This document shows positions 44,361 through 60,691 of a stretch of 64,000 nucleotides of DNA, piece after piece. Numbering within the stretch: position 1 is the stretch's first letter; each line of letters starts with the position of its first letter. The translations under genes were made by a program, and so were the position numbers. Source of the stretch: Bryobacterales bacterium (GTDB lineage: Bacteria; Acidobacteriota; Terriglobia; Bryobacterales; UBA6623); NCBI GenBank assembly GCA_965226385.1, contig OZ245359.1, positions 905,116-969,115 on the forward strand. The letters are read 5' to 3'. The notes under the pieces were generated by a model that did no database searches, had not been told where the DNA came from, and worked only from the letters and a program-made list of their open reading frames with translations.

Positions 44361-45330
44361 CCTGATTGGGTTCGTCATTCTCTTCCTGCTTACGGGCTGT
44401 GGTGTGTCAACTGAGCCTTTTCAAGAACCTGTCGTCCTTGAAATCACCCCCGGTGCAAGTTCAATACAGATTGCAGAGCAACTCACTTCCCACGGAGTGA
44501 TTTCCTCCAAATGGCCGTTCCTGATCCTGCGAGTACTCAACAACAAAACAAACCTGCAGGCAGGAGAGTATGTATTCGAACAGCAGACTTCAGCAAGTCA
44601 AGCATTTAAAGTTATTTCTGAAGGCCACGTCTTACTACACCCAATCACCATCCGGGAAGGATTGAATCGCTTTGACTTTGCAGAAACACTTGCTACAAAC
44701 GGACTGGCAAACAGGGATAAGGTTCTTGACTTGATCTCAGACCCAACCCTGGGTAGGGACATCATTCCCCAAGCAACATCCCTTGAGGGCTTTCTTTTTC
44801 CGGAAACATACCTTTTAGCCAAGTACTCTACAGCAGAAGACTTGATTCAATCCATGCTTAACCGCTTCCGGCTTGTCCTGCAAGAAGCTACTGAGCAAAG
44901 GACAGTAGAGATAGATCCCTGGGAAGCGCTGATCCTGGCTTCAATGATTGAGAAAGAAGCTGTGGACGAGGAAGAAGCGAAGCTTGTTGCCGCGGTGTTT
45001 CATAACCGCATCAATAAAAAAATACGCATGCAGTGCGATCCGACAATCATTTACGGACTGTTACTTGAAAACCGTTTCCGGGGAAAGATTTACCTTTCCG
45101 ATTTGAAAGATCCCCATCCTTACAACACTTATATCCATTCGGGTTTGCCCCCAGGGCCCATCACTAATCCCGGCAAGGCTTCCCTGTTCGCTGCATTTGC
45201 CCCTGCTGAAACGGATTATCTGTTCTTTGTCGCTAAACCGGCCCCTGAGAGGGGGCACCAGTTCTCAAAGTCCAATCGAGAACACAATCGAGGTGTACAA
45301 AAACTGCGGCAATCCAAACGCTCCAAGTAA
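44272..45330 (+). CDS. mltG: Endolytic murein transglycosylase MltG (YceG family); start uncertain
   Basis: Single N-terminal TM LIGFVILFLLTG. EGFLFPETY, ILASMIEKEA, RMQCDPTIIYG and YNTYIHSGLPPGPITNPG. The true start is probably a non-ATG codon near 44340-44370, overlapping the ruvX end. Confidence 0.8.
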   Translation: MEYNLLHSGLLTKWQQSFYWKATLLQIAHSLIGFVILFLLTGCGVSTEPFQEPVVLEITPGASSIQIAEQLTSHGVISSKWPFLILRVLNNKTNLQAGEYVFEQQTSASQAFKVISEGHVLLHPITIREGLNRFDFAETLATNGLANRDKVLDLISDPTLGRDIIPQATSLEGFLFPETYLLAKYSTAEDLIQSMLNRFRLVLQEATEQRTVEIDPWEALILASMIEKEAVDEEEAKLVAAVFHNRINKKIRMQCDPTIIYGLLLENRFRGKIYLSDLKDPHPYNTYIHSGLPPGPITNPGKASLFAAFAPAETDYLFFVAKPAPERGHQFSKSNREHNRGVQKLRQSKRSK

Positions 45331-45345
45331 CTCTGCTCTGGCAAC

Positions 45346-45849
45346 ATGACTGCTGTTGTAAAACCAACGATCCGAGGCTGTGTACTGGAGTTTCTCAAGC
45401 AGAACCAGATTGAGTGTGTGGACCGGGAGACTTTTCAGCGGATTCAAAACTACGTATTCCATCGCATGGACGGCAAAAGGAGGCTGTCAAAGCAATACCT
45501 GCTGGATATCCTGCTCAGCACCAAACTCGAAGTGGATCGAAGAGTGGGAGGGTTTCCAGTTAATTTACGGAACAAGGTCAAGACGGGGAGTTTGACGGAG
45601 ACCAGGAAGTCATTGATTGCCATGTCCAACGAGTACAAGCAAGCGACTGATCAATTGCACGCCAAAGATATCCACAGAGCAGTTATATACTCCAAGGAAC
45701 ACATCCGGCTTTCGCTAGGGAGCAAGATCAGCGAAGAAAAACGCACAGAGAAACAGGAAATTCTGGACTGGCTTCTCGTATGGCTTGAGAATCCACGAAT
45801 TTTTGAAAACTGGATATCTGTCAAGGATGGATTGGTTTGCGAGCGCTAA
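45346..45849 (+). CDS. Hypothetical cytoplasmic protein (167 aa)
   Basis: Backbone-like composition and a clean ORF. No motif recognised. Confidence 0.5.
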   Translation: MTAVVKPTIRGCVLEFLKQNQIECVDRETFQRIQNYVFHRMDGKRRLSKQYLLDILLSTKLEVDRRVGGFPVNLRNKVKTGSLTETRKSLIAMSNEYKQATDQLHAKDIHRAVIYSKEHIRLSLGSKISEEKRTEKQEILDWLLVWLENPRIFENWISVKDGLVCER

Positions 45850-45892
45850 TTCCAATTCAATGGAAAGCTGGATTGCTGTTAACCTGCATTTC

Positions 45893-46120
45893 TCATACCA
45901 GTTGAACGTGCGTGGTTTGAGACCAGATGCCGCCGAGAGGCTGCTTGCTGAGTCTGCAGTACACACGATTGGCATCCGATACGGAACTTCGCCGCACACC
46001 GAGAATCTCGAAGAACACGGTGTAGAAGCTCTGCGTTTCACCCTTCTCGTAGGCTGCGCCCTACCATTCGTCGGAGAATGCGGCAACACGGGCACGAACT
46101 TCGTTCCACGATAGGCGCAT
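45893..46120 (-). pseudogene. N-terminal relic of an MmeI-like (type IIL/IIG) restriction-modification enzyme
   Basis: MRLSWNEVRARVAAFSDEW*GAAYEKGETQSFYTVFFEILGVRR matches the conserved MmeI-family N-terminus (SWNEIR..A..F..EW....E..EAQSFW.DFF.VFGV.RR). In-frame TAG at 46061-46063. Truncated after about 75 codons, where composition changes. Confidence 0.6.
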
Positions 46121-46123
46121 GGC

Positions 46124-47053
46124 CTACAGGCCTTCCAACTCAAAATAATCTTCGTCGATCCGTTTTACCTCATGACAGATCCTGGTGCGTACGCCAACAT
46201 CGTGCGAGACCATCAGGCGCGCCAATTCTTCCCCGTCGATCAGAACAATGCGCTTGGGACTCCGCGCCACATAAACCTTGGCGGCATGAGTGAAAGTGGC
46301 CGTGGTAACGAACACACCCTTGGTCGTGCCTGCCAAATCAATCGCCCCTGCGAAGTTGCGCAAGGCGCCTTCGCCCACGGTGTTGCCAACGGCGCATTTC
46401 TTGGCCTGAAGATAAACCTCGTCAAGGCCAAGCGCATCTTCCCTGATCGTGCCGTCGACCCCGCCGTCGCCCGAACGCCCGGTAACTCGGCCCATATCAG
46501 CATTGCCGCCGCCATAGCCCATGGCGATCAGCAGATCCACAACCACCCGTTCGAGAAATGCGGGCTCCGCCTCACGAACTCTGTCCAGTACCTCCGACTC
46601 CAACACATAGCGCAATTGTTTGGCGGCGCGGTCCAACGCTTCCTCCGGCGTATCCGCCCCATCGTCAGGCGGCACAGGTGCATTCTCGGCCTTTGGCGAC
46701 GACGTATGCTTCTTTGCCTTCCACACAACATAAGCCGGGTAGTTGCTCAGTAAATTCAAGTTGATCTGCGGTGGTGCTTGAGCCAGCAGTCGTTCGCCTT
46801 CAGCAGTCAGTCGGTACATACCACGCCGGACCTTTTCCGCCAAACCCGCTCCCACCATGTGAAACATCGCCCAACTAACCCGGTTCACGAACACTGGCTG
46901 CCGACCGCTGGGAAGCAACTCTCGCAAATCGTCAGCAGTCAAACCCTCGGCGGCGGCAACACGGGTGCGCACCTTGGAGATTGGTGTCTCTACGCCGCCA
47001 GACAGCACTTTGAGAGTCGGCAGCATAAGCGATTGATAGTGAGGGACTGGCAT
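46124..47053 (-). CDS. mrr: Mrr-family restriction endonuclease (modification-dependent type IV)
   Basis: Mrr_N winged helix MPVPHYQSLMLPTLKVL...VFVNRVSWAMFHMVGAGL. Mrr_cat GGVDGTIREDALGLDEVYLQAKK...GVFVTTATFT...IVLIDGEELARLM. Confidence 0.85.
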   Translation of the reverse strand: MPVPHYQSLMLPTLKVLSGGVETPISKVRTRVAAAEGLTADDLRELLPSGRQPVFVNRVSWAMFHMVGAGLAEKVRRGMYRLTAEGERLLAQAPPQINLNLLSNYPAYVVWKAKKHTSSPKAENAPVPPDDGADTPEEALDRAAKQLRYVLESEVLDRVREAEPAFLERVVVDLLIAMGYGGGNADMGRVTGRSGDGGVDGTIREDALGLDEVYLQAKKCAVGNTVGEGALRNFAGAIDLAGTTKGVFVTTATFTHAAKVYVARSPKRIVLIDGEELARLMVSHDVGVRTRICHEVKRIDEDYFELEGL

Positions 47054-47076
47054 AGGATTGTCTTTTGTCGTTCTGT

Positions 47077-47382
47077 CTACGCCGCCATCTGCCGGGGCTT
47101 GACGCGCTCGACGATCTGTCGGCTCACATCGATCTCGGTCCTGCGAAGCTCGTAGGTCTTTTGCAGGTTCAGCCAGACCTGTGACGTCGTCCCGAAGTAG
47201 TGCGCCAGGCGCAACGCCACATTGGCAGTCACGCCCCGCTGACCGTGCAGGCTCGCCGTGATACGGTTCACCGGCACATCCAGCGCCTTAGCTAGTGCGT
47301 TGGCCGAGAGTCTGAGCATCTCGAGTTCCTTGCGCAATATCTCTCCCGGATGCACCGGTCTCATACCATTCCTCGCGTTCAT
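47077..47382 (-). CDS. higA: HigA-family antitoxin (XRE HTH)
   Basis: PVHPGEILRKELEMLRLSANALAKALDVPVNRITASLHGQRGVTANVALRLAHYFGTTSQVWLNLQ. Confidence 0.85.
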   Translation of the reverse strand: MNARNGMRPVHPGEILRKELEMLRLSANALAKALDVPVNRITASLHGQRGVTANVALRLAHYFGTTSQVWLNLQKTYELRRTEIDVSRQIVERVKPRQMAA

Positions 47383-47394
47383 GTCCTCAAGCCA

Positions 47395-47692
47395 TTAGTG
47401 ATAATCAATGATCTCTACATCGTAAGGTCCGTCGTCTTCCCAACGGAAACCTATCCGCCACTGCACATTGATCCTTATGCTGTGTTGGCCTACGCGGTCA
47501 CCCTGTTGTGCTTCCAGTCGGTTGCTAGGTAAACCTGCAAGGTCATTGAGGGACTCCGCACTGTCCAGATAGGTGAGACAGCGTGAGGCTTGATCGGCGA
47601 TCCTTGAAGCTGCTGCATCCACACCTCGAACGCCGCGATGCGATGCCGAAGAAGTGTCGGGTGTTCCGGTCCTTGAAGCTGCTTTGCCATGG
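47395..47692 (-). pseudogene. higB: HigB (RelE-fold) toxin, 5' part out of frame
   Basis: C-terminal two-thirds HRGVRGVDAAASRIADQASRCLTYLDSAESLNDLAGLPSNRLEAQQGDRVGQHSIRINVQWRIGFRWEDDGPYDVEIIDYH. The N-terminal SFKDRNTRHFFGIAS lies in a second frame and the ATG in a third. Confidence 0.65.
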
Positions 47693-47899
47693 GGGAGCAA
47701 GGCTCATTAGAGTTCCGACAAACTCTCCTTCAAGCATTGGCTCGCCAACTTCCAAAAGCATTTCCACCACTTCGCGTAGGTTAGTATTGAGCTCATCGAG
47801 AGTGTCGGCTTGGGAGTGAGCTCCAGGGAATCCGGGAAAGTAGCCCACATAGAGACCAGTCTCACGATCCTGTTCTACAACCGCCGTGTATTCTTTCAC
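47691..47899 (-). CDS. HicB-like antitoxin domain (UPF0150), no own stop and no hicA partner
   Basis: MKEYTAVVEQDRETGLYVGYFPGFPGAHSQADTLDELNTNLREVVEMLLEVGEPM. ORF 47543..47899 runs on into the higB 5' region. Confidence 0.6.
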
Positions 47900-47976
47900 A
47901 ATTGCATGGCACCCCTTTTCTTTCCTGATTACCTAGAAGCCTCAGCCAAAGTTAGCAGTCGATATGGTAGCGGGAG

Positions 47977-48028
47977 GACATTGTCACGTTAATCGGGTTT
48001 GGCCGCAAAGGACCACATTGATTCCCTT
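47977..48028 (+). repeat. Solo terminal fragment of an IS6-family element (direct repeat of 56603-56654)
   Basis: 52 bp, GACATTGTCACGTTAATCGGGTTTGGCCGCAAAGGACCACATTGATTCCCTT, with 1 mismatch to the end of the IS6 copy at 56603. Confidence 0.8.
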
Positions 48029-48636
48029 CAAAGTCGGCCGTGTCCTCGACCTCTACCACCTCACTTGGCAAGGCACCCCCCCTGCGCGACGACGAGTTCG
48101 TCGTCTCGACCGACGAGAAAACTAGCCCAAGAAGGTCGAGCACGAGTACAAGCGCTACGTGGCTTGGGCGTAACCTGGCCGCTCTTGACGTCCACTGCGT
48201 CAAGCTGTTCGGGCGTTGCGAGTTCTACTCCGGCATCGTACCGTTCGACCGCCGCGTCGAGCAGGTCATGCAACAGGATCCGTACCGCCGCGACCGCCGT
48301 GTCTTCTGGATCGTTGACAATGGCTCCTCGCATCGCGGGCTCAGCTCGACCCACTGTCTTCGAGACCGCTACTCCAACCTTCTCCTCGTCCACGGTCCCG
48401 TTCACGCCAGTTGGCTCAACCAAATCGAAGTCTACTTCTCAGTGCTGCAGCGCAAGGCGCTCACGCCGAACGATTTCGCCTTGCTCGACGAACTCGCCGA
48501 GCGCCTGCAGTCGTTCGAGCGCCACTACGAAGCGATCGCCAAGCCGTTCGAGTGGAAGTTCACGCGTGATGACTTGCAGAAGCTACTCAAGCAAATGAAG
48601 GCACCCGGTCTCCCGCGGTACCAGCTCACCATCTAG
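48029..48636 (+). pseudogene. 5'-truncated IS630-family transposase relic
   Basis: DEKTS..., then KKVEHEYKRY in another frame. LAALDVH..., FWIVDNGSSHRG, HASWLNQIEVYFSVLQRKALTPNDF and PFEWKFTRDDL. The HTH half is absent. Confidence 0.7.
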
Positions 48637-48742
48637 CTGGACAATTCGTTACCGAATTTATGAAACTGAGTACTTAGGAGTAGTCGGCGCGGCACGCGCG
48701 GGCTGCAAAGTTTCTTTGACGCACGCTGAGACTGGGCGTAAC

Positions 48743-49102
48743 ATGAAAAGCATGGGACACATAGTAGCAATTGTTGCGTGGCTGACCCTGGTGGGGGGCG
48801 TAGTACCGTGTCCTCTCATGCTCGCGAACCCGATGCCAGGCGCTCACGACTGTTGCGATCATCCGGATCAGCATTCCGACAACAACCCAACCGGCTGCGA
48901 GGTGCAGTGTGCACAGGCGGCTGAACGCGTTGCCTTGCAGCATGAACTCAGGAACCCGGATGAGAAGCCATTCGAATCCGGTCCGTCGACTGCCGACTCG
49001 TCCTCTCCGATTCGAGGATACTCCGCGAGAACGCTGATCCGGCTTGCTCTCGTCTGTCCACACCCACCGCATTACATCCTTAACGCCAGCTTTCTGGTTT
49101 AG
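48743..49102 (+). CDS. Small exported Cys/His-rich protein upstream of the efflux operon
   Basis: Signal-like MKSMGHIVAIVAWLTLVGG, then PCP...HDCCDHPDQH...CEVQC. A comparable antisense ORF exists, so the coding call is tentative. Confidence 0.4.
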   Translation: MKSMGHIVAIVAWLTLVGGVVPCPLMLANPMPGAHDCCDHPDQHSDNNPTGCEVQCAQAAERVALQHELRNPDEKPFESGPSTADSSSPIRGYSARTLIRLALVCPHPPHYILNASFLV

Positions 49103-49270
49103 GGTCTAGTCCCCTGCAAGGCCGCTGCGATTAGCCCTTCGGAGTTCGCCTCATTGCATTCCGCGGGCCATATCGCCGGATGTCTCTTACATCGAGACAA
49201 CCCGGCGCGGTCACCCCGAGGACATTGACTTCGGGATTACAGATTCCCCACAGACCCTAGGAGATTAGTA

Positions 49271-50557
49271 ATGCTACTTCGCTTTTGTGCGCTACTGCTG
49301 CTCGCGGTAGGAACACCAGCGCAAACTTATTCAACCAACAACGACATTCGTTTAAGGAAACTCGTCGAGCAAGCGCTGGACCGCAACCCTCGTGTGCGCG
49401 AGTCGTTCTTGCGCTATCAAGCGGGACTACAGCGAATTCCTCAAGTCACATCGCTTCCCGATCCCATACTCAGCGTGACCCAATTCGCACGCACACCAGA
49501 GACCCGGGTCGGTCCGCAGACAACCGTCCTGTCGCTCTCGCAGAAGTTTCCATGGTTTGGCAAGCTCTCGGACCAAGGCAAGGTAGCCGCGAAGAGCGCG
49601 GCAGTACTTAGCGAGCTTCACCAGGCTCATCGAGCCGAAGTGGTTCACCAAGTGAAGCTTGCCTATTACGACCTTGCCTACATTGATCGCGCGATTGTCA
49701 TCACAAAGAAAGACGAACAACTCTTGGGGCACTATGAGACTCTCGCTCAAGCCCGCTACTCGCAAGGAGTTGGGCTTCAGCAGGCCGTCATCAAGTTACA
49801 AGCGGAGATCACTCGTGACCGTAACCGGCTGCAAGTGCTCAAGCAACAGCGCGTCGATTCAGAAGCCGCTCTGAATACTGTTCGCGACCAGCCTGCAGGC
49901 ACGACGATTGCCCCGATCGAGGGACTGAACACACCCCAGGTGAAGATCGACCTTGATGAACTGTACGCGATGGGGCGCGACGCCCGTCCCGAGGTCAAAG
50001 CCGCATTTCTGGAAATCGAGAAGCACGAAAAGCGCATCCATTTGGCCAAACGGCAATACTGGCCGGATCTTATGCTCGGCGTTTCGTGGGGTAACATCAA
50101 CGGCCAACGCGATCAGCTTGGTCTACTAAGCCCGCCTGACGACAATGGCAAAGATGTCTACAGCGTCGCTGTAGGCGTGAACCTGCCCATCTTTCGGCGC
50201 AAGTACGACGCCGGCATCCAGGAAGCCACGGAAACCTTCGGAGCCGCGCGCGAAGCTTATCGGGACATCGTGAACGAAGTCGGCCTGTCGGTGCGGTCGG
50301 TTGGCTTTCGCATCCAAACGATCGAAGAGCAACTCGATCTCTTCAAGAAGGCGCTGTTGCCCCAAACCGAGCAAGCGCTCCGATCTACCGAAACGGCGTA
50401 CGCGACCGGCACTACGGGAGTACTTGACCTACTCGATAGCGAGCGCATGCTTCTCGAAGTTCGGCTTGGACTTGCTCGTCTACAGAGCGACTACCTAAAA
50501 GCACTGGCCAACATGGAGCGGGCCATTGGTTCGGCCTTTCCGGAGGAGAAACCATGA
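49271..50557 (+). CDS. TolC-family outer-membrane efflux protein (CusC/CzcC-like)
   Basis: Signal peptide, two OEP repeats and coiled-coil-rich composition. Stop overlaps the next ATG (ATGA). Confidence 0.8.
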   Translation: MLLRFCALLLLAVGTPAQTYSTNNDIRLRKLVEQALDRNPRVRESFLRYQAGLQRIPQVTSLPDPILSVTQFARTPETRVGPQTTVLSLSQKFPWFGKLSDQGKVAAKSAAVLSELHQAHRAEVVHQVKLAYYDLAYIDRAIVITKKDEQLLGHYETLAQARYSQGVGLQQAVIKLQAEITRDRNRLQVLKQQRVDSEAALNTVRDQPAGTTIAPIEGLNTPQVKIDLDELYAMGRDARPEVKAAFLEIEKHEKRIHLAKRQYWPDLMLGVSWGNINGQRDQLGLLSPPDDNGKDVYSVAVGVNLPIFRRKYDAGIQEATETFGAAREAYRDIVNEVGLSVRSVGFRIQTIEEQLDLFKKALLPQTEQALRSTETAYATGTTGVLDLLDSERMLLEVRLGLARLQSDYLKALANMERAIGSAFPEEKP

Positions 50558-52047
50558 ACGCGAAGCTGAAAGGCACGGCACTGCTCGCAGTGGGCATGGC
50601 GGTAGGACTGGGCTTATCCGCGGCCTTGATCTGGAATCCCCTGGGCTGGATGTGGATCGACCGTTCTCTCGGCCGACCTCATCAGGCTGGCGAAGTTACG
50701 GACACTTCCGAAACAGGTCTCTACACCTGCGGTATGCATCAGCAGGTCGTTCAGGAGGGGCCCGGCGATTGTCCCATTTGCGGTATGAGACTCAAGCCGC
50801 TTGGTATGCAAGCAGGCGACAGAGAGCCGACGCCACCTACTGGAGAGCGCAAGATTCACCACTGGCGCGCCCCGATGGATCCCAGCTATGTTTCAGACAA
50901 ACCTGGCAAGTCTCCCATGGGTATGGACCTCGTTCCAGTCTATGAAGACGAGGCTCCCACTGAGGGTGGAGTCCGCGTAAGCCAGAGCTTCCTGCAAAAC
51001 TTCGCCGTTCGGACCATGAAGGTGCACCGTGGTTCTTTGCCGATCGAGATTCGCACTGTCGGCACCCTCGCGCACAACGAAGAAAAGGTCGTGTCGATCA
51101 ACACAAAGTTTGAAGGCTGGATCGAGAAGGCGTACTTCAACAACGTAGGTGAGCACGTAAACAAGGGCGATGTACTCTTCGAGATCTATTCTCCTCAACT
51201 CGTGACCACCCAGCGGGAATACCTTGCCGCGATGGACTACGTCGCCCGGCTCACAGGAAATGAAGCCTACCCGGACGCGATCGAGCGCGCCAAGTCTCTG
51301 CTCGAATCAGCTCGGGAGCGCCTTCGCTACTGGGACATCAGCACTAACCAAATCAAGGCCCTCGAAGAGACGAAGGAGGCCAACCGGACCCTAAGTTTCA
51401 TCTCCCCCGCATCAGGCTCGATCGTTGCCAAGATGAGCGACTCGCTCGAAGGGATGAAGCTCAGCCCAGGAATGACCATATTAAAGCTTGCGCATCATGC
51501 AACCCTTTGGGCCGAGGCGGAGTTTTTCGAGCGGGACATTCGGCATGTTCGAGCGGGCCAAACGGTCACGGTGGAAGTTGACGCCTATCCCGGGCGGCGT
51601 TGGAGCGGGAGAATACTCCTGTTCCGCCCGGCGGTAAAACCGCAAACACGAACCCTCACTACCCTCGTTGAGGTCGCCAACAAAGACCTCAAGCTCAGGC
51701 CCCAGATGTTCGCGAACATCACTCTGCGTGCGGGAGGCGTCTCAAATTCCGTCCTGGTTCCCGACCAGGCGGTCCTGCATAGCGGCGAACGAGCTGTCGT
51801 CGTTGTGGCCAAAGCCGAAGGTCTCTTTGAGCCCCGTGAAGTGCATCTCGGCATCGAGAGCAACGGCATGCAGGAAATCACCTACGGCCTGTCGTCGGGC
51901 GAGACGATTGTGACCTCCTCGCAGTTTCTCATCAACTCTGAGAGCAACCTAAATGCAGCCATCAGCCAACTGCTCAGTGAACGAGCCGGTGAAGGAACGG
52001 GCGGTTCACCGATGCCCCCGCATACCAGCATTGAACAGCAACAGTGA
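50554..52047 (+). CDS. RND periplasmic adaptor (CusB-like) with an N-terminal metal-binding motif
   Basis: YTCGMHQQVVQEGPGDCPICGMRLKP, then HWRAPMDPSYVSDKPGKSPMGMDLVPVY (compare E. coli CusB KSPFMDMDLVP). HlyD-like barrel-sandwich follows. Confidence 0.85.
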   Translation: MNAKLKGTALLAVGMAVGLGLSAALIWNPLGWMWIDRSLGRPHQAGEVTDTSETGLYTCGMHQQVVQEGPGDCPICGMRLKPLGMQAGDREPTPPTGERKIHHWRAPMDPSYVSDKPGKSPMGMDLVPVYEDEAPTEGGVRVSQSFLQNFAVRTMKVHRGSLPIEIRTVGTLAHNEEKVVSINTKFEGWIEKAYFNNVGEHVNKGDVLFEIYSPQLVTTQREYLAAMDYVARLTGNEAYPDAIERAKSLLESARERLRYWDISTNQIKALEETKEANRTLSFISPASGSIVAKMSDSLEGMKLSPGMTILKLAHHATLWAEAEFFERDIRHVRAGQTVTVEVDAYPGRRWSGRILLFRPAVKPQTRTLTTLVEVANKDLKLRPQMFANITLRAGGVSNSVLVPDQAVLHSGERAVVVVAKAEGLFEPREVHLGIESNGMQEITYGLSSGETIVTSSQFLINSESNLNAAISQLLSERAGEGTGGSPMPPHTSIEQQQ

Positions 52048-52057
52048 GGACGAGGCT

Positions 52058-55000
52058 ATGTTTGAACGCATCATAGATTGGTCGATCCAGAACAAGTTCC
52101 TGGTGGTGCTGGGCACCCTGTTCATCGCGGCGGCTGGCCTCTACTCTCTGTCGCGTACACCGCTCGACGCCATCCCGGATCTGTCCGATGTCCAAGTCAT
52201 TATCTATACCGAGTATTCTGGCCAGGCGCCGCGCATCGTCGAAGACCAGGTTACTTACCCGCTCACTACGCAGATGCTTGCCGTACCCTTCGCCAAGGTC
52301 GTGCGCGGCTACTCGTTCTTCGGTTTCTCGTTCGTCTACATCATCTTCGAAGACGGCACGGACATGTACTGGGCTCGAAGCCGTGTTCTCGAATACCTCA
52401 ACTACGTCTCGGGGAATCTGCCCGCGGGCGTCAGGCCAACGCTCGGGCCTGACGCCACCGGCGTCGGCTGGGCGTTCATGTACGTACTCAAGTCTGATCG
52501 TCACGACTTGAGTGAACTTCGTTCGATTCAGGACTGGTTTCTCAAATATGAGCTGACCAGTGTACCCGGTGTCTCCGAGGTAGCCAGTGTCGGCGGCTTC
52601 GTGCGCCAGTACCAAATCACCATCGACCCAGCCAAGCTTCGCGCGTACGACATTCCTATTTCGAAGATTCGCAGCGCAGTCCAAAACAGCAATAGTGACG
52701 TGGGTGGCCGCCTGCTTGAGGTTGCGGAAAAAGAGTTCATGATTCGAGGGCTGGGCTATATCCAGTCACTCGACGATATCCGCGGGATCGCACTCGCTGT
52801 TAATCTGAATGGCACTCCAGTTTTGCTCCAGGACGTAGCCCGGGTCAGCATCGGACCCGACATCCGGCGGGGATTGGTGGACTGGAACGGCGAAGGGGAG
52901 ACTGTCGGCGGCATTGTTGTTGTTCGCTATGGCGCGGACACTCTTCAGGTCATCAAGGATGTTAAGGCAAAGCTCGAAGAGGTCAAACCGGGGCTTCCCG
53001 AAGGCGTCGAAATCGAAGTTGCGTACGACCGCTCAACGCTCATTGAGCGTGCGGTCGCAAGTCTGCAGTCAAGCCTGAGTCAGCAGTTTCTGATCGTGGG
53101 CCTTGTCTGTCTGGTATTCCTGTTTCATGTCCGAAGCGGGCTTGTCGCCATCATCACACTCCCTGTGGGGATTCTGATGGCGTTTGTCGCCATTTACCTT
53201 CAGGGTCTCAACGTCAACATCATGTCGCTCGGCGGTATCGCCGTCGCCATCGGCACAATGGTCGATGCCGGCATTGTGATGGTCGAGAACGCGCATAAGC
53301 ACATCGCGCGTGACGGCGGGAAGAAGTCCCATTGGGAGATCATCGCAGCCTCGTCGAAAGAAGTCGGTCCGTCACTCTTCTTCTCGCTACTGATCATCAC
53401 CGTCTCGTTCATGCCGGTATTTACGTTGGAGGCTCAGGAAGGTCGCCTCTTCAAGCCACTGGCGTTTACGAAGACCTACTCAATGGCCGCCGCCGCTTTG
53501 CTGGCGATCACACTCGTTCCCGTCCTCGTCGGTTACTGCGTGCGCGGACGTATTCGACCTGAGAAAAAGAACCCAATCAGTCGACTGCTGATCTATCTGT
53601 ACAAGCCTCTCCTGGCTTTCACCTTTCGCTTTAAGTTCCCGGTTCTTGCTCTCGTTGTACTCGCGCTGGCGGTGACGGCGGCACCGCTCACCCGTCTTGG
53701 TTCAGAGTTCATGCCGCCCCTTTGGGAGGGCGACCTGCTCTATATGCCCACAACGCTTCCCGGCATTTCGATTACGAAGGCGCGAGAGGTTCTGCAGCAG
53801 ACCGACAAGATCATCAAAACGTTCCCCGAGGTTCATCACGTTTTCGGAAAGGTCGGCCGTGCTGACACCGCTACCGACCCGGCGCCGCTCTCAATGATTG
53901 AAACCACCATCGTACTCAAGCCGGAGAGCGAGTGGCGAGAGGGCATGACTCCTGAAAAATTGGTGGACGAGATGAACGCCGCCATCCAAGTCCCAGGGCT
54001 CACCAACGCCTGGACCATGCCCATCAAGACCCGCATTGACATGCTTTCGACCGGCATTAAGACTCCTGTGGGTATCAAGATCGCCGGTGCCGACCTCACA
54101 GAGCTGGAACGCCTTGGCAAGGAAATTGAGCAAGTCGTGCGGAATGTCCCCGGCACGCTGAGTGTGTATGCCGAGCGTGTTATGGGCGGAAACTACCTCG
54201 ACTTTATGATCAATCGGGAGGCTATCGCTCGCTATGGCCTCACCGTGCAAGACGTCCATGACGTCATTCAAACCGCTATCGGCGGGATGAACATCACGAC
54301 CACGGTTGAGGGCCTCGAACGCTACCCCGTCAACCTGCGTTATAGCCGCGAGCTTCGAGATGACCTTCCGGCCCTGCGCTCCGTGCTGGTGCCAACTCCC
54401 GGCGGACAGCACATCCCGCTCGGTCAGCTCGCCGACCTCAAGTACGCAGTTGGCCCGCCTGGGATCAAGAGCGAGAACGCCAAGCCCAATGCCTGGGTCT
54501 ACATCGACATTCGCAATATCGATGTCGGTACGTACGTGGAGCGTGCACAGCGTGCCGTATCTGAGAATGTCAAGATCCCATCCGGCTTCACCATCTCGTG
54601 GAGCGGCCAATACGAATACATGCTGCGAGCACAACAACGGCTGCTGTATGTGATTCCGCTGGCGCTCCTCATTATCTTCATGATCCTTTACATGCATACG
54701 GGCTCTGTCACCGAGACAGTGCTTGTTCTACTAGGCGTCCCTTTCGCGCTCACAGGATCGGTTTGGCTGCTCTACGTTCTTGACTTCAACCTGAGCGTTG
54801 CCGTCTGGGTCGGCATGATTGCTCTCGCGGGACTTTACGTCGAGACTGCCATCGTGTTGCTTCTTTACCTCAATATCTCGTACAAAGACTACAAAGAACG
54901 CGGCCTGCTCACGAATCGCGCGGCGCTCATAGAGGCCATCCACGACGGTTCGGTCAAGCGCGTGCGCCCGATCCTGATGACCATTGCCACGGATGTTATC

Positions 55001-55204
55001 GGGCTGCTTCCCATCATGTGGAGTACCGGAACCGGGGCGGACGTGATGAAACGCATCGCCACGCCGCTTGTTGGAGGCGTCATCACGTCTGGCATAGTGG
55101 TGCTCGTCATCTACCCGGTTATCTATTACCTCTGGAAAGCCCGTGGACTACCCAAAGGTGAGCCGTTTCGCGGCATTCGAAGATTCAAGGAGACTCAGGC
55201 ATGA
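52058..55204 (+). CDS. CusA/CzcA-family heavy-metal efflux RND transporter
   Basis: 1048 aa with 12-TM RND topology. MFERIIDWSIQNKFLVVLGTL, and AIGTMVDAGIVMVEN in TM4. Start at 52058 after the cusB stop and a GAGG-rich RBS. Confidence 0.9.
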   Translation: MFERIIDWSIQNKFLVVLGTLFIAAAGLYSLSRTPLDAIPDLSDVQVIIYTEYSGQAPRIVEDQVTYPLTTQMLAVPFAKVVRGYSFFGFSFVYIIFEDGTDMYWARSRVLEYLNYVSGNLPAGVRPTLGPDATGVGWAFMYVLKSDRHDLSELRSIQDWFLKYELTSVPGVSEVASVGGFVRQYQITIDPAKLRAYDIPISKIRSAVQNSNSDVGGRLLEVAEKEFMIRGLGYIQSLDDIRGIALAVNLNGTPVLLQDVARVSIGPDIRRGLVDWNGEGETVGGIVVVRYGADTLQVIKDVKAKLEEVKPGLPEGVEIEVAYDRSTLIERAVASLQSSLSQQFLIVGLVCLVFLFHVRSGLVAIITLPVGILMAFVAIYLQGLNVNIMSLGGIAVAIGTMVDAGIVMVENAHKHIARDGGKKSHWEIIAASSKEVGPSLFFSLLIITVSFMPVFTLEAQEGRLFKPLAFTKTYSMAAAALLAITLVPVLVGYCVRGRIRPEKKNPISRLLIYLYKPLLAFTFRFKFPVLALVVLALAVTAAPLTRLGSEFMPPLWEGDLLYMPTTLPGISITKAREVLQQTDKIIKTFPEVHHVFGKVGRADTATDPAPLSMIETTIVLKPESEWREGMTPEKLVDEMNAAIQVPGLTNAWTMPIKTRIDMLSTGIKTPVGIKIAGADLTELERLGKEIEQVVRNVPGTLSVYAERVMGGNYLDFMINREAIARYGLTVQDVHDVIQTAIGGMNITTTVEGLERYPVNLRYSRELRDDLPALRSVLVPTPGGQHIPLGQLADLKYAVGPPGIKSENAKPNAWVYIDIRNIDVGTYVERAQRAVSENVKIPSGFTISWSGQYEYMLRAQQRLLYVIPLALLIIFMILYMHTGSVTETVLVLLGVPFALTGSVWLLYVLDFNLSVAVWVGMIALAGLYVETAIVLLLYLNISYKDYKERGLLTNRAALIEAIHDGSVKRVRPILMTIATDVIGLLPIMWSTGTGADVMKRIATPLVGGVITSGIVVLVIYPVIYYLWKARGLPKGEPFRGIRRFKETQA

Positions 55205-55911
55205 AGACGCTTATCTTGCTGCTACTGACAACAGGACTCGTGAGCGCGCAGACAAATTTCGAAGTCGTTCACAAGAAAAGTCTCTGGTTCGATCAGAAGG
55301 GCACCGTCCGAATCGACGACTCTGGAATCTCGTTCCAGCCGGTCGGCAAGGAGGAAGAGAGCCGCACTTGGGCGTACGAAGATATCCAGTCGCTGGACCG
55401 TGTGATCTCGACTGAGTTTCGGCTGCTCAGCTACGAAGATGTCGCCTGGAAGCTCGGCCTGGACCGACGTTATCGCTTTGTCCTTACTTCCGGGAAGTTG
55501 ACCGACGAGGTTTGGGACTACGTGGCTGCTCGCATAGACAGACCCATCACGGACCGGGCTGCAAGTCGGCCCGTCTCGGCCGAGCAGCACACAGAGCAGG
55601 AGCTTCCAGTGAAGCATCTGACGACACTGGGCGGGTCGGAAGGAGTTTTGTTTTTATCACCTGAGCGAATCATGTATCAGACAGACGCGAGGAAGAAGTC
55701 TCGCGATTGGCTGGTTATACGGGATGTTCAGTCGGTGTGGTCCGCTGACCCGTACCGTCTGGAGATTCACGTCTATGAGGACACCCGGGGCACGTTTCGA
55801 GCGGCCAAGGTATACAGGTTCGCGCTCAAGAAGCCTCTTGACGCTGAATTCTATTGGCGTTTCAAGCTCAAGCTCTATGAGGTGGACCGGCGTAGGGACC
55901 TGATGCCGTGA
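55201..55911 (+). CDS. Exported hypothetical protein with an internal two-domain duplication, coupled to the RND gene
   Basis: ATGA overlap with the RND stop. Signal MKTLILLLLTTGLVSAQ. The halves align (WAYEDIQSLDRV..RYRFVLTSGKL versus WLVIRDVQSVWS..VYRFALKKPL). Confidence 0.6.
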   Translation: MKTLILLLLTTGLVSAQTNFEVVHKKSLWFDQKGTVRIDDSGISFQPVGKEEESRTWAYEDIQSLDRVISTEFRLLSYEDVAWKLGLDRRYRFVLTSGKLTDEVWDYVAARIDRPITDRAASRPVSAEQHTEQELPVKHLTTLGGSEGVLFLSPERIMYQTDARKKSRDWLVIRDVQSVWSADPYRLEIHVYEDTRGTFRAAKVYRFALKKPLDAEFYWRFKLKLYEVDRRRDLMP

Positions 55912-55930
55912 GGGGTAGCCCCGACGAGAT

Positions 55931-56422
55931 TCAACGATACGAATCCCGCAGTTCCGTAAACGGCTGGACGACACCACCGTGCTCGGAGCGGAATCGCTCC
56001 GCCGCGGCTTGACTACTGAAAGCCAGAATGCTCGGCGAGCAGCGATCGAACTGCATGCCGCTCGCTTCCTTGTGAGCGTCCATGAGAAAATGCTCGCGCA
56101 TACAAAGATTGATCGCACTGCCTACGACAACGTAGGCGGCTCCCGGAGCTAGGGTCTTGCCAGAGTCGTAGTCATACAAGCCACTCACCATGACATCTGA
56201 GCCAGTCTGCTGCTGCGCTCGAAGCGCGCACGCAGCGCAACAAAATGTTTGTGCCTGTCCATCGACGACGCCGTCGGTGCGGGATTCCGTGTGAACCGGC
56301 CGGCCACATACCGAACAGACCGCTTCTGCTGCAGACGACATGGTTTGCCAACCGACATAGAGGAGCCCGGTACCGGCTATGACGAGCAACAGTATCCCGA
56401 CTACGGTTGACGACCTAGCCAT
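55931..56422 (-). CDS. Membrane-anchored TRASH-motif / NosL-like putative metallochaperone
   Basis: N-terminal TM. C-x2-C-x21-C-x3-C (CSVCGRPVH...TFCCAAC). The C-terminal half resembles NosL (YVVVGS...AFSSQAAAERFRSEHGGVV). Confidence 0.55.
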   Translation of the reverse strand: MARSSTVVGILLLVIAGTGLLYVGWQTMSSAAEAVCSVCGRPVHTESRTDGVVDGQAQTFCCAACALRAQQQTGSDVMVSGLYDYDSGKTLAPGAAYVVVGSAINLCMREHFLMDAHKEASGMQFDRCSPSILAFSSQAAAERFRSEHGGVVQPFTELRDSYR

Positions 56423-56602
56423 ACGACTCTAGCTTAGCCTCTCTGGTCAGAGCAGGACTGGTCCTCAAAGTGGAAACGCAGGCCAGTCTTCGAGAGGTTC
56501 CAACCACACCCTCGTAGGCATGATTCTAGAATGTCGGTTTGCGTGGCGCTTCTTCGTCTCGATTGGCCAGTGAAGCCTCGCTCGGCTAGCATCTCCGACA
56601 GT

Positions 56603-57383
56603 GACATTGTCACGTTAATCGGGTTTGGCCGCAAAGGACCGCATTGATTCCCTTTCAGGCGGCCGCACTCGTACTTTCCGAAATCGTTTGAACGTGAGTC
56701 TGTTGCGTAAATGACGCTGGACGTAAAAGGTATAGTAAACAGCGGATTGGATGTTCAGGAGGCGTTGGACCGAACCCGGTGATTTGAAACGCTGCTGTTT
56801 TCGCTCTCGACGTCTGCCCGGCTGATGCTAATTCTCGGCACGATTATTCGCACGCTTATCATCAATGTGTTGAGCCGTCAGGCCGAAGGTTCGAATTGCG
56901 AAGTGATAGGATCCGAGTTTATTGGTTGCGAACTGGGTTGGCGCCCAACCTTGTTTCCTCAGCAGCTTGCGCATCAACTTCAACGCTGCTATGGCGTTCC
57001 GCTTCGATTGCATGAGGAAATACAGGACCTCGCATTCATTGTCGACGGCGCGTCAGAACCAATGGCGTTGCCCATGAATCACGATGACCATCTCATCAAG
57101 ATGCCAATAGTCGCTGGGCGTGGGTCGCTTGTGGCACAGGTTCCGGGCATTCGGCGCACCAAATTTGAGGAACCAGCACCGTACGCTCTCGTAGGAAACA
57201 TCCAGACCCTGCGCCGCAGTAGATCCTCCACATCCCGATAGCTCAGAGTAAACCTGGCATAGAACCGAACGGCTTGTCAAATGATGTCCAGTGGAAAGCG
57301 GTGCCGTTTGAAGGAGATGTCGTCCATCCCAAAAGGCTGCACCTGAATCCAGATCTGGTTAGAGCACAAAACGTGACAATGCC
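56603..57383 (-). mobile_element. IS6-family insertion sequence (781 bp), inactivated
   Basis: Terminal IRs GACATTGTCACGTT (56603-56616) and AACGTGACAATGCC (57370-57383), 13/14 complementary. Size and single-ORF layout are typical of IS6/IS26. Confidence 0.8.
56615..57327 (-). pseudogene. IS6-family transposase with three premature stops and one frameshift
   Basis: MDDISFKRHRFPLDII*QAVRFYARFTLSYRDVEDLLRRR, then a shift at the C3 run 57207-57209. GLDVSYESVRCWFLKFG...WHLDEMVIVIHGQRHWF*RAVDNECEVL...NNRAEN*HQPGRRRERKQQRFKS. Confidence 0.8.
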
Positions 57384-57533
57384 CAACTGAACTCGTCGAA
57401 CCAGCGCGATCCTCGGGCAAGGAATATCCGAGAAAACCACAAAATAAACTTCCGATACGTAGAGGAAATCAATGGCCGGACAAAACTGAATCTGACATCA
57501 GGAGCATATGCAGTCCATGCCGACTAATCCAAC

Positions 57534-59972
57534 TCAGGTCAAATTCACTGGATCGACATCAATCACGAGAGCCGTTGCAGGCCACTCTTTCTCAAGAGCA
57601 TATTTTCTGGCCTTGGTGAGCAGTTCTGCGATGGCTTTATGCTCCTGGGACTTCATCAGGAATTGGTAACGGTATTCCGTACGCAGCTTGACCATGGGAG
57701 CCTCGGCAGGTCCCAGAATCCGTAACCCTTTCGGCAGCGGATGCAGGCTGGCACTTAACTCCTGGCTCAGTGATACTGCTTCAGAAAGCACACGACTGCG
57801 AACAATCATTGATGCCATTACCGTGAACGGGGGATACCAGAGCATTTTACGAAACTGCACTTCACGTTCGTAAAAGGCCTGGTAATCCTGATCCTTGACT
57901 AATTCGATTGCATAATGATCCGGGTTGACAGTTTGTAGCAGGACCAGGCCGGGTTTGCTTCCTCGCCCTGCCCGACCCGCGACTTGAGTCAGTAATTGAA
58001 AAGTACGCTCCGCAGCCCGAAAGTCTGGAACCCCCAGTCCAATGTCCGCATCAACAACCCCGACAAGTGTGACGTTGGGAATATCATGGCCCTTGGCAAT
58101 CATCTGCGTACCAACCAGCAAGTTGTATTCGCCTTCCCTGAACGCCTGCAGAATTGATACGTAGTCATGGCGCCCCCGCACAGAATCACGGTCAAGGCGT
58201 GCAATACGCGCTTGAGGGAAGCTCTCATTCAGAGCATCTTCAACCTTCTGGGTTCCAGTCCCCTGGAACTGCAGGAATTCCCGTTCACAGTCTGGACATC
58301 TGCTTGGCACCGGCTCTTCATGGTCACAGTAGTGACACAGTAGTCGTTGCCCATTCTTGTGGTAAGTCAAGGCGACAGAGCAGTTGTTGCACTCGATCCT
58401 GTTACCGCAACTGCGACATAGCAGGAATCTCGAAAAACCCCTGCGATTCAGCAGGATCATGGCCTGCTCGTCCCTGTTGATGCAGCCTTGAACTGCATCT
58501 ACAAGTTCCCCTGAAAACAAACCGCTCTTCCCGGTTTTTGCAAATTCCTGTCGCATATCGATCAGGCTTACACTCGGCAATGGTCTGGCGTGTATTCTTG
58601 CCGGGAGGGAAAGCAAGGTGTATTTGCCGGTCTCGGTATTCCTTCTGGATTCAAGGCTGGGAGTTGCCGACCCCAAGACTACGACTGCACCAGCATTCCT
58701 GGCGCGTACGATGGCAACATTGCGCCCGTGATAGCGAGGAGCCTCATCCTGCTTGTATCCGTTGTCATGCTCCTCATCAACGATTACAAGACCCAGATTG
58801 CTCAAGGGTGCAAAGACACTACTGCGGGTTCCGAGTACAACCTGCGCCTGTCCGGATCTGATACGCCTCCACTGTTCTGCGCGTTGCATTCCACTCATGC
58901 CACTGTGTAAAATCGCGATGTTCTCTCCAAAACAATCAAAAAACCGTGATGCCGAAGCTGGGGTCAAGCCAATTTCAGGAACCATCAGCAAGGCAGAGCG
59001 GCCACGACGGACAGTTTCCTCAGTAGCTCTCAAGTAAACTTCCGTCTTTCCAGAACCCGTGACTCCATGTAGCAGAAATGTTTGAAATCGATCCTTCTCT
59101 ATGCCCTTCCTGATCGCTTCCAGTGCAGATCGCTGATCCGGATTCAGGTTGATTTCACCGACCTGCACGTTCAACTGCTGTTGCTTCCTGACAACTGTCA
59201 GTTCCACCAACCCTTCCCTGGCAAGCTTTCTTGCAACACTGACAACATCCTTACGCTCCACCAACAGTGACCTGAGGTCGTGAGATCCTGGATTGGCACG
59301 CAAGAAGCCCAGCAACCACTTCTCACCCTTGGTCTTTCGTCCAGCACTTGATGCATTTGCTATTGCACTTACAGTCAGGATCCCGTCACGAGACTGTGTA
59401 GGATCCCGCATAGCTTGTTTTTCCTTAACAGTAATGAGTCCACGTTGCTGCAATCGACGCAAATACTGGGCAGACTTTTCCTGTTTCCTTAGCAGATGTA
59501 CCCAAGTCAGCGGTCTTCTCCTGAGTGCCAGTAGTAGAGAAACTGCAGGATCCTGAACCTGTCCTGTACTCTTGAATCTGTCTGCCGCTTCAACCCCTGC
59601 CGGCGTAAGAGAAACAGTTTTTCTGGAGCGCATTTCATCGCCCAAGGGCAGCATTGATTTCAGGACGATACCAATCGGTGTGCAGTAATAGGAACTGATC
59701 CAGCGGCCCAAATCGATTAATTCAGGGCTTAGAACCGCTTCATCATCCAACAGTTGCTGGATGGGGCGAACCTTGAACGCAGGTTTCATCGAGTGTGTGG
59801 AGAGAACGACACCGGTCAGTGTTCGTGCACCAAATTGAACAACTACACGGCAGCCTGTCTGCACACCTTCACACAGGGCTTCTGACAACCCGTACGTGTA
59901 AGTCTTGTCTAGTGGAACCGACAGGGCAATTTCGCAAAACGACGGCAGCTTCCCGCTGGTCGATTGCTCCAT
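57534..59972 (-). CDS. priA: Primosomal protein N' (replication restart helicase)
   Basis: GVTGSGKTEVY, VIVDEEHD, and Cys-rich insert CRSCGNRIECNNCSVALTYHKNGQRLLCHYCDHEEPVPSRCPDC. Confidence 0.95.
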   Translation of the reverse strand: MEQSTSGKLPSFCEIALSVPLDKTYTYGLSEALCEGVQTGCRVVVQFGARTLTGVVLSTHSMKPAFKVRPIQQLLDDEAVLSPELIDLGRWISSYYCTPIGIVLKSMLPLGDEMRSRKTVSLTPAGVEAADRFKSTGQVQDPAVSLLLALRRRPLTWVHLLRKQEKSAQYLRRLQQRGLITVKEKQAMRDPTQSRDGILTVSAIANASSAGRKTKGEKWLLGFLRANPGSHDLRSLLVERKDVVSVARKLAREGLVELTVVRKQQQLNVQVGEINLNPDQRSALEAIRKGIEKDRFQTFLLHGVTGSGKTEVYLRATEETVRRGRSALLMVPEIGLTPASASRFFDCFGENIAILHSGMSGMQRAEQWRRIRSGQAQVVLGTRSSVFAPLSNLGLVIVDEEHDNGYKQDEAPRYHGRNVAIVRARNAGAVVVLGSATPSLESRRNTETGKYTLLSLPARIHARPLPSVSLIDMRQEFAKTGKSGLFSGELVDAVQGCINRDEQAMILLNRRGFSRFLLCRSCGNRIECNNCSVALTYHKNGQRLLCHYCDHEEPVPSRCPDCEREFLQFQGTGTQKVEDALNESFPQARIARLDRDSVRGRHDYVSILQAFREGEYNLLVGTQMIAKGHDIPNVTLVGVVDADIGLGVPDFRAAERTFQLLTQVAGRAGRGSKPGLVLLQTVNPDHYAIELVKDQDYQAFYEREVQFRKMLWYPPFTVMASMIVRSRVLSEAVSLSQELSASLHPLPKGLRILGPAEAPMVKLRTEYRYQFLMKSQEHKAIAELLTKARKYALEKEWPATALVIDVDPVNLT

Positions 59973-60691
59973 CAGTCCAGGTGCTGGTTAATCAGTTCGG
60001 CCCAGATTGTATAGCCGGCATCATTGATATGTAAATTGTCTTCCACAAACAACTCCGGACGTGGCATGCCATCAGTTCCCAGCATTGGAGTGTCGATATC
60101 GACATACTCAAGCCTTTCATCGCTCTCGGTGATTGACTTGATAGCAGTATTCGTTTCCCGAATACTCTCAATGAGATTCCAGCGCCTGATGCTTGGCTTG
60201 ATACAGACAAAAACTATCTTGGTTGCAGGCAAGGCCTCATGTATGCGAGCCACCAGTGCCTGATAATCGGCAACTACAATTTCCAGGGTTTTGCCACTGG
60301 CAAGATCGTTGTCCCCCTCATATACAAAAACCACGGAAGGTTCCAGTGGCACCACAATGCGATCCACGTAACGCAGTGCATCTGCCATGTGAGATCCACC
60401 AAATCCACGGTTGACAACTTGCTTGCCCTCAAAGAACTGATCCAGATTCCAGCGTCGAAAACTGGAACTGCCTAAAAAGACAGCTGCACCTTTCGGGGGA
60501 GGATTCGTACGGTCACTTTCTTCAAAAGCCAGCATGGCTTCTTCCCAGCGATCCTCCTCAGCAACAGGTTCAACTTCCTGCTCAACAACAGGTTCTTCTT
60601 GCTGTGTTTGGCCACATGCGAAAAAGCATGTCACTGCAAGTAACAGCATCAATGTGCGACTAGTCATAAAATGTTTCATCAGGTGTTTCAT
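59972..60691 (-). CDS. SGNH/GDSL-family hydrolase, exported
   Basis: Signal/lipobox ...LLAVTCFFACG. Block I FLGSSSF, block II GFGGSH, block III EGDND, block V DNLHIN. Confidence 0.75.
   Translation of the reverse strand: MKHLMKHFMTSRTLMLLLAVTCFFACGQTQQEEPVVEQEVEPVAEEDRWEEAMLAFEESDRTNPPPKGAAVFLGSSSFRRWNLDQFFEGKQVVNRGFGGSHMADALRYVDRIVVPLEPSVVFVYEGDNDLASGKTLEIVVADYQALVARIHEALPATKIVFVCIKPSIRRWNLIESIRETNTAIKSITESDERLEYVDIDTPMLGTDGMPRPELFVEDNLHINDAGYTIWAELINQHLD

Follow-up and report, generated by a model that had tools for sequence, protein, structure and literature searches.

Directly repeated relics of an IS6-family element bracket a predicted copper/silver efflux cassette in a Bryobacterales genome

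The window, a stretch of 64,000 nt of contig OZ245359.1 of a Bryobacterales bacterium, carries an 11.7-kb insert (45850-57533) between MltG/unk167 and priA. The insert is larger than the segment bracketed by IS6-family sequences and reaches 2.1 kb further to the left than the first of these, designated copy A. The left part of this species-specific insert (45850-47921, minus strand; Pfam and PADLOC matches) encodes a type IV Mrr restriction enzyme (46124-47053), a HigA-like HTH gene (47077-47382), HigB (47395-47700), and an N-terminal HicB-like relic (about 47750-47899), all on the minus strand. GC3 of the Mrr gene is 64%, compared with 47-57% in flanking core genes. In 11 genus relatives, the MltG-PriA site has no such left segment, and the site between MltG/unk167 and priA is empty in nine of the ten same-genus relatives that keep synteny; PriA of the genus representatives is only 57-61% identical. 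Another genus member has a 3.5-kb insert there with an MqsA-like antitoxin and a ParA-like/TPR protein, as judged by eye, and the MltG/unk167-priA site is a recurrent insertion hotspot. The 11.7-kb block was found in no other species. There are no tRNA genes at 40000-64000 and no matches to Rfam families at 44000-60000.

The cargo of the insert (48716-56422) comprises six genes, namely, a Cys/His-rich ORF, cusCBA, a gene for a 236-aa protein, and a NosL/TRASH gene, and the gene list given for this interval in the first-pass annotation was borne out by profile searches. On the left, the conserved cassette starts at 48716, the point from which it shares nucleotide homology with the related loci L035 and L036. 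A promoter-like site was recognized by promoter scan at 48716-48744 (plus strand), followed by the small exported Cys/His-rich ORF (ATG at 48745, to 49102, plus strand), with homologs preceding cusC in L035-36 and L038-42. Coded on the same strand are cusC (49271-50557; PF02321, 156 bits), cusB (50554-52047; PF16576, 215 bits, and HMBD PF19335, with two HMBD motifs on the protein), and cusA (ATG at 52058 or 51953, to 55204; TIGR00914, 1179.6 bits, cutoff 701). The HME-RND pump, membrane-fusion protein, and outer-membrane factor are encoded in one operon of overlapping or adjacent genes, and cusCBA (49271-55204) is predicted from these matches to form a tripartite RND Cu(I)/Ag(I) efflux pump. 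The TM4 motif of CusA is AIGTMVDAGIVMVEN, of the A-x5-D-x6-E type, which we take to be the monovalent-cation signature of the HME classification. The cusA stop codon is overlapped by the gene of an exported 236-aa protein with no assigned function (55201-55911, plus strand), which had no match in Pfam and NCBIfam profile searches; this gene follows cusA in all eight of the closest loci and in 10 same-genus loci. The right cassette edge is formed by the gene of a NosL/TRASH-like membrane-anchored protein (55931-56422, minus strand; PF05573, 27 bits; PF12156 and PF24273 below cutoff), convergent with the cus operon, and its homologs (52-55%) have an equivalent position in L038-42. The pump is probably still functional from its own promoter. 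The cassette resembles E. coli CusCFBA and Sil in its CusC-, CusB-, and CusA-type proteins (TIGR00914) and in the type of TM4 motif. It differs from them in that no homolog of CusF was detected in it, and in having the Cys/His ORF, two HMBD motifs on CusB, the 236-aa protein, and the NosL/TRASH protein.

The cargo is a conserved, horizontally acquired foreign cassette. Its CusA is 84-90% identical to that of distant MAGs, but only 62-67% identical to same-genus orthologs, while genes flanking cus on the contigs with 84-90% CusA identity are merely 32-68% identical to this genome. The phylogenetic tree also splits the distant-MAG CusA from the genus orthologs (99*/100*), and GC3 is 62-70% in the cargo versus 47-57% in flanking core genes. 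The possibility that the efflux genes have syntenic orthologs in IS-free relatives, raised at first, did not materialize, as the site is empty there and the cus orthologs of genus relatives lie at sites other than MltG/unk167-priA. None of 88 related cus loci had an IS6 homolog closer than 10 kb, and elsewhere the cassette adjoins an integrase or IS of non-IS6 families. A plasmid search revealed no plasmid with the unit and only cusA-level similarity of 64-65% nt identity, and two metagenome pattern scans for the IS6 end gave no matches. The cus operon of the relative G004 abuts a gene for 598 aa, of which an 88%-identical copy is present in this genome (2,256,388-2,258,181), 1.2 kb from a third IS6 fragment. 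This gene was considered as the ancestral site of the cassette and rejected, because it is a transposase gene (DDE_Tnp_1) of 73% GC and is itself mobile.

The cargo lies between two copies of a 52-bp direct repeat, 47977-48028 and 56603-56654, which were 51/52 identical in pairwise comparison, with an A/G mismatch at position 39. The repeat had been reported correctly in the first-pass annotation, and its being a widespread repeat unrelated to IS6 ends, considered there as a counter-explanation, is at odds with a whole-genome search, in which the 52-mer pair was unique in the 4.43-Mb genome. The only further match is a fragment of about 250 bp with 77-80% identity (2,259,369-2,259,621), and the runner-up direct repeat within 44-61 kb has 29 nt and 76% identity. 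The right repeat belongs to IS6 copy B (56603-57383, minus strand; 781 bp), with terminal inverted repeats (IRs) of 14 bp, IRR GACATTGTCACGTT (56603-56616) and IRL GGCATTGTCACGTT (57370-57383), the latter at the position first described. They are alike at 13 of 14 positions, IRR position 2 being mutated. Copy B has the short conserved terminal IRs starting with GG and the size of the family, with one reading frame at about 56655-57327; IS6-family elements are about 700-890 bp long with a single transposase gene (PMC7986276). With stop codons read as X, the pseudogene scored 178.2 bits with the IS6 profile NF033587 (cutoff 125) and 84 bits with PF13610, and the transposase relic is so confirmed as IS6. 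The transposase is dead: it has three nonsense codons (TGA at 57277-79, TGA at 57053-55, and TAG at 56828-30) and deletions of 1 bp near 57219 and 22 bp near 56674, and its state of decay is identical in a second strain. The insert has copy B at its right border, 150 bp from priA, and no 8-bp target duplication flanks this copy (ccgacagt vs. caactgaa). No cognate intact transposase for either copy exists in the 4.43-Mb genome; the sole intact IS6-family gene (4,149,626-4,150,342) is 44% identical.

Intact relatives of copy B were identified in sister genera (e.g., L049 and L052-L054). They are 805 bp long, encode a transposase of 231 aa, have perfect 16-bp IRs, and share with copy B 85% nt identity, the IR GGCATTGTCACGTT, and gene layout; copies A and B differ from these intact elements in IRR G2A and in disabling mutations. 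Because the stop codon of the intact relatives aligns to 56655-56657, the 52-mer represents IR plus untranslated tail. The first description of the sequence at 56603 thus stands as to the 781-bp IS6 element and its terminal IR, but not as to the 3' end of the transposase gene. One intact relative has the 8-bp target duplication CAAGCGTC on both sides, while five others have none, and five copies, 99-100% identical, are present in one genome. The lineage of copies A and B is thus a real, active IS6. Its closest members are in the same bacterial family, not in the genomes of the cus donors. Solo IRR ends of this lineage, of about 80, 111, and 250 bp, are known both from other genomes and from other parts of this one.

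Copy A (47977-48028, listed on the plus strand) is a stump of 52 bp, composed of the 14-bp IRR and 38 bp of untranslated tail and matching 56603-56654 at 51 of 52 positions. Its IRR end is in direct orientation to that of copy B, 8,626 bp away. Five derived bases, including IR position 2 G>A, are common to copies A and B and distinguish them from all intact relatives, and the two are sisters, each other's closest relatives. The fragment begins exactly at the IS tip and ends one base before the aligned transposase stop codon. That copy A was once complete is only inferred, because just 52 bp remain. An origin of this sequence as a short segmental copy or by gene conversion, without its ever having belonged to a full IS6, is very improbable: the bare 52 bp and the stop one base before the codon would fit such an origin, but the fragment starts precisely at the IS tip, longer solo IRR ends are known from the same lineage, and the inner junction shows microhomology of the kind left by a deletion into IS630.

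Copy A adjoins relics of two other elements. To its left are the terminal 55 bp of an IS1595-family element (47922-47976, plus strand), which match the ends of at least five partial genomic IS1595 copies with 81-92% identity and are severed exactly at the tip of copy A. The IS1595 copy at genome position 1.568 Mb encodes a PF12762 domain (E 3.6e-22). A 430-bp repeat family touching 47922-47976 was tried as a structured RNA or the 5' end of a group II intron and rejected; it represents IS1595 3' ends and has no Rfam match. To the right is an IS630-family relic (48029-48677, plus strand; PF13358 and NF033545 matches), which lacks about 570 bp of its 5' part and has an internal deletion of about 60 bp and frameshifts. 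It is 75-83% nt identical to same-genus copies, in alignments starting at 48025-48036 and ending at 48677-48678. The fusion of a lone terminal piece of IS6 to a 5'-truncated IS630, as given in the first-pass annotation, is therefore correct, but two further claims made there failed. The weaker similarity continuing for about 20 bases beyond the 52-mer, where IS6 has CCCTTTCAGGCGGCCGCAC and the fused IS630 has GCCTGCAAGGCCGGCCGCAT, is a chance likeness of IS6 and IS630 and not IS6 sequence. The truncated neighbors had been explained by IS6-mediated adjacent deletions; the IS630 truncation is not of this kind, because its junction falls within both elements, on a patch of microhomology, and only the IS1595, overlooked at that time, is cut at the IS6 tip.

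The best explanation of 47977-57383, unproven and given roughly even chances, is a fossil IS6-family (IS26-style) pseudo-compound structure, in which two direct sister IS6 copies would once have flanked acquired DNA with the six-gene Cu(I)/Ag(I) efflux cassette. The bracket could have originated from an IS6 cointegrate or from an IS6-plus-cargo unit inserted beside a resident IS6. The MltG/unk167-priA site may already have carried a defense/toxin-antitoxin islet ending in IS1595 when an IS6 with IRR position 2 G>A came to abut the IS1595, 55 bp from its end; this junction is observed, its mechanism presumed. The cus cassette would then have become bracketed by copy A and a sister copy 150 bp from priA, the bracket being visible and the event conjectural. 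The last three steps are shown: a genus-resident IS630 inserted 38 bp upstream of the cassette, a microhomology deletion took some 750 bp from copy A together with some 570 bp from IS630, and the transposase of copy B was lost. All six steps are older than the divergence of the sampled strains. Of the IS26-style unit first proposed, the direct orientation, IS6 ends, and foreign cargo hold. The translocatable-unit or pseudo-compound history itself cannot be shown, because there is no 8-bp duplication, no IS6 near the 88 cus loci, and no plasmid carrier. The further inserts at the hotspot and the 2.1 kb of insert to the left of copy A also count against it; the unique direct bracket, the sister relationship of copies A and B, the cut IS1595 end, the empty site in relatives, the foreign cargo, and the place of copy B at the border speak in its favor. 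The outer ends of the whole unit are agcgggag (47969-47976) and caactgaa (57384-57391), so the search for 8-bp target duplications recommended at the outset was negative here as around copy B. Such repeats are often missing in the IS6 family and are not obligatory, and its members flank cargo 'invariably as direct repeats' (PMC7986276).

A rather unlikely alternative is independent debris at a hotspot, where the cassette arrived otherwise (on an integrase-borne island, by recombination, or with IS630) and two resident active IS6 landed separately, in the same orientation by chance. It agrees with the other inserts at the MltG-PriA site in relatives and strains, with the travel of the cassette with non-IS6 elements elsewhere, with the lack of target duplications linking copies A and B, and with the nearest IS6 relatives being found in the same bacterial family and not among the cus donors. 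However, of only three relics of this IS6 lineage in 4.43 Mb, two bracket exactly the foreign cassette, they are direct and mutual closest relatives, and separate simple insertions should each leave an 8-bp duplication, which copy B does not have. Less probable still is the import of the 11.7-kb insert as one block, with the IS1595/IS6/IS630 junction and copy B built in a donor, in which case the IS6 history would be that of the donor. GC and GC3 of the Mrr and cus genes are similar and unlike those of flanking genes, and the left border at 45850 has no mobility gene, both in favor of such a block. The IS1595 end, on the other hand, shares 92% identity with a resident copy of this genome and the nearest IS630 relatives are in same-genus genomes, which suggests that the junctions were assembled in this lineage; the restriction of the block to this species also argues against import.

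Like IS26-type pseudo-compound transposons (Tn4352, Tn6023, Tn610, and Tn4003; reviewed in PMC7986276 and PMC8722046), the segment has direct IS6 ends flanking resistance cargo, no target duplications, and a neighboring element cut exactly at the IS tip. Unlike them, it has one copy of 52 bp and the other as a pseudogene, has lost mobility, and has no second occurrence found; its cargo is metal efflux on an environmental chromosome, not antibiotic resistance on an enterobacterial plasmid. The locus is an ordinary mobile-element relic and no new kind of system, and the understanding of IS6 elements is unchanged by it. It is a fully resolved case of layered IS decay (IS1595/IS6/IS630). The pseudo-compound pattern, familiar chiefly from clinical IS26, would with this locus also include metal resistance in an environmental lineage. 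At the hotspot by priA, the species, with low GC and a reduced genome, gained a foreign Cu/Ag pump instead of the genus-typical one. Possible, but somewhat doubtful, is a wider reading, in which the cargo is a cross-phylum mobile Cu/Ag cassette of fixed six-gene layout, the two uncharacterised accessory proteins are pump parts replacing CusF, and the locus is the first trace of an IS6-family vehicle in Acidobacteriota.

The island and its decay are fixed in all strain contigs examined, which number more than 10. The IS6-bracketed structure is old and immobile. In one strain contig (L151/L141), a resident multi-copy IS of 1.36 kb is present at 56590, 12 bp outside copy B. This contig, with the plasmid-like genes ParA, AAA_25, and DUF7146 beside NosL, was considered as a surviving cointegrate and rejected, because the break comes from the 1.36-kb IS and is either derived or due to a switch of the assembly at a repeat.

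The 52-bp direct repeat reported in the first-pass annotation is real: pairwise comparison of the copies at 47977-48028 (an IS6 stump, copy A) and 56603-56654 gave the same orientation and a single mismatch. No other direct repeat above 29 nt at 76% was found in 44-61 kb. The second 52-mer is the end of copy B, a 781-bp IS6-family element (56603-57383, minus strand). The repeat had been read as the terminal IR plus the 3' end of the transposase gene; it is instead IR plus untranslated tail, because the stop codon of intact relatives aligns to 56655-56657. The window has three occurrences of GRCATTGTCACGTT, all at ends that the first-pass annotation had named. Searched against the complete 4,427,227-bp genome, the element matches itself, the 52-mer, and, as the sole further hit, a terminal fragment of about 250 bp (genome 2,259,369-2,259,621, locus L045), which is 77-80% identical. 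This fragment stops at the ATG of a permease-like ORF of 436 aa, within AAAATGCC, and the start codon may be partly built from the IS6 end.

The assignment of the relic to IS6 is correct, as the minus-strand frame of copy B with stops read through scores 178.2 bits for NF033587, the IS6 family transposase model with a cutoff of 125, and 84 bits for PF13610. At the DNA level, 200 genomes of the order were searched, and other genera of the same family proved to have elements about 85% identical. Of the six full-length copies taken from these relatives, all have perfect 16-bp IRs (GGCATTGTCACGTTAA), four have an open 231-aa transposase, and one is flanked by an 8-bp duplication, CAAGCGTC, with none at the other five. 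In one relative's genome there are five copies, 99-100% identical, two of which form an inverted pair separated by 5.6 kb. Scored against an intact copy, copy B has stops at codons 17 (57277-79, CGA>TGA), 92 (57053-55, TGG>TGA), and 167 (56828-30, TCG>TAG), a 1-bp deletion near 57219, and a 22-bp deletion near 56674. Only one transposase frame of the IS6 family looks intact in the genome (4,149,626-4,150,342, 239 codons); it encodes a protein 44% identical to that of copy B, and a crude scan revealed no matching 14-bp inverted repeats.

Copies A and B have five states in common that differ from every intact relative, one of them G>A at IR position 2, and on these states are sister copies. The segment 47922-47976, left of copy A, is an 81-92% match to the ends of other partial elements in the genome, at least five in number, one of which encodes a PF12762 (IS1595) domain (E 3.6e-22). 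Such partial 3' ends are scattered at genome 1,568,514, 2,163,187, 2,794,773, 3,673,386, and 4,122,278; the two longest have about 430 bp in common at 82%. The IS1595 end breaks off precisely where the IS6 tip of copy A begins, as expected of IS6 insertion or IS6-mediated adjacent deletion. To the right, IS630 homology (75-83% nt to same-genus genomes) starts at 48025-48036 and runs to 48677, with about 570 bp of the 5' part lost. This junction is internal to both elements, and IS6 CCCTTTCAGGCGGCCGCAC resembles IS630 GCCTGCAAGGCCGGCCGCAT there, an indication that microhomology, rather than IS6, mediated the deletion. The same likeness explains some 20 bases of weaker similarity that had been taken as continued repeat. 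Thus the proposal that IS6-mediated deletions truncated the neighbours is possible for the IS1595 end, but not for IS630.

The cargo (48716-56422) encodes clear CusC, CusB with two HMBD motifs, and CusA (TIGR00914, 1179.6 bits; TM4 motif AIGTMVDAGIVMVEN), so the initial gene calls stand. Nucleotide homology to the closest contigs is 82.6% across 48716-55911 and starts at a promoter-like site, TTGACG-17-TAACAT. The window's Cys/His ORF, 236-aa gene, and NosL-like gene also occur with cusCBA in the closest loci. The global database has CusA proteins that are 84-90% identical, on contigs whose flanking genes are merely 32-68% identical to the window's genome. In the FastTree phylogeny, the window CusA and P0003 are grouped together (support 99*) in a clade of 30 rows, some of them from MAGs labelled Gemmatimonadota and Gammaproteobacteria. 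The ten orthologs of the genus fall in a clade of their own (100*), within which a named Bryobacterales MAG nests, so the host probably belongs to this order. GC3 is 62-70% in island genes, 47-57% in flanking genes, and 77-81% in donor-like cusA genes, a pattern that fits import, then amelioration. In same-genus genomes, cusCBA and the 236-aa gene lie at other places and in varying contexts, and CusA is 62-67% identical; no cus orthologs in syntenic position were found in these relatives. A 598-aa DDE_Tnp_1 transposase gene (genome 2,256,388-2,258,181) has a GC content of 73%, against 54% for the genome, and its protein is 88% identical to a copy adjoining the cus operon of relative G004, suggesting that an IS was recently shared.

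The order sulfatase-MltG-(unk167)-PriA-GDSL-DUF3592-POTRA is conserved in 11 same-genus genomes. In nine of them only 56-851 bp separate MltG/unk167 from PriA, so 45850-57533 is, judging by gene order, an 11.7-kb insertion; of the other two, one is rearranged and one, G016, carries 3.5 kb of inserted DNA there. This MltG-PriA insert (L022 5334-8463) encodes a ParA-like/TPR 607-aa protein, an MqsA-like zinc-ribbon protein with two HTH, and a 129-aa partner, identified by eye from translations. Toxin-antitoxin and defence islets seem to enter this site repeatedly, as at a hotspot. Separate landing of the IS6 copies at such a hotspot is the main rival explanation, possible but less probable than the best one. 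In the literature, IS6 copies are described as flanking cargo "invariably as direct repeats" because the family transposes through cointegrates (PMC7986276). The best explanation, with about an even chance of being right, would be a bracket built by IS6, now dead, that encloses an imported copper/silver cassette. Comparison of flanks gave no 8-bp target duplication around copy B or the whole unit, which is uninformative because repeats flanking IS6 members are often lost (PMC7986276). None of 88 related cus loci has an IS6 homolog within 10 kb, no plasmid carrying the unit was found, and metagenome contigs gave no match to the IS6 end. Of the relic IS26-style unit first proposed, the repeat and its IS6 identity hold, and the history as a mobile unit, with no second instance, stays inferred.

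A second strain (contig L034) is colinear at 98.7% identity, with the 52-mer and copy B lesions identical; island divergence is about 1%, equal to that of the flanks. Exact-protein look-ups found the island in all of more than 10 further strain contigs. Strain contig L151 (1-9837) departs from the window at 56590, 12 bp from copy B, with a 1,360-bp DDE_Tnp_1_4 IS of which the window's own genome contains at least 10 copies, 98-99.9% identical. Beyond it are 8.5 kb of plasmid-like DNA (63.5% GC; ParA/CbiA, AAA_25, DUF7146, RHH antitoxin), not present in the window's genome. The break may be a later event with real integration, or an assembly switch at the repeat. The most variable island part relative to L034 is the HigB/HicB-relic region 47601-47691 (4.5% vs about 1% elsewhere), where a 20-bp deletion and two 4-bp insertions suggest that the toxin gene is decaying still.
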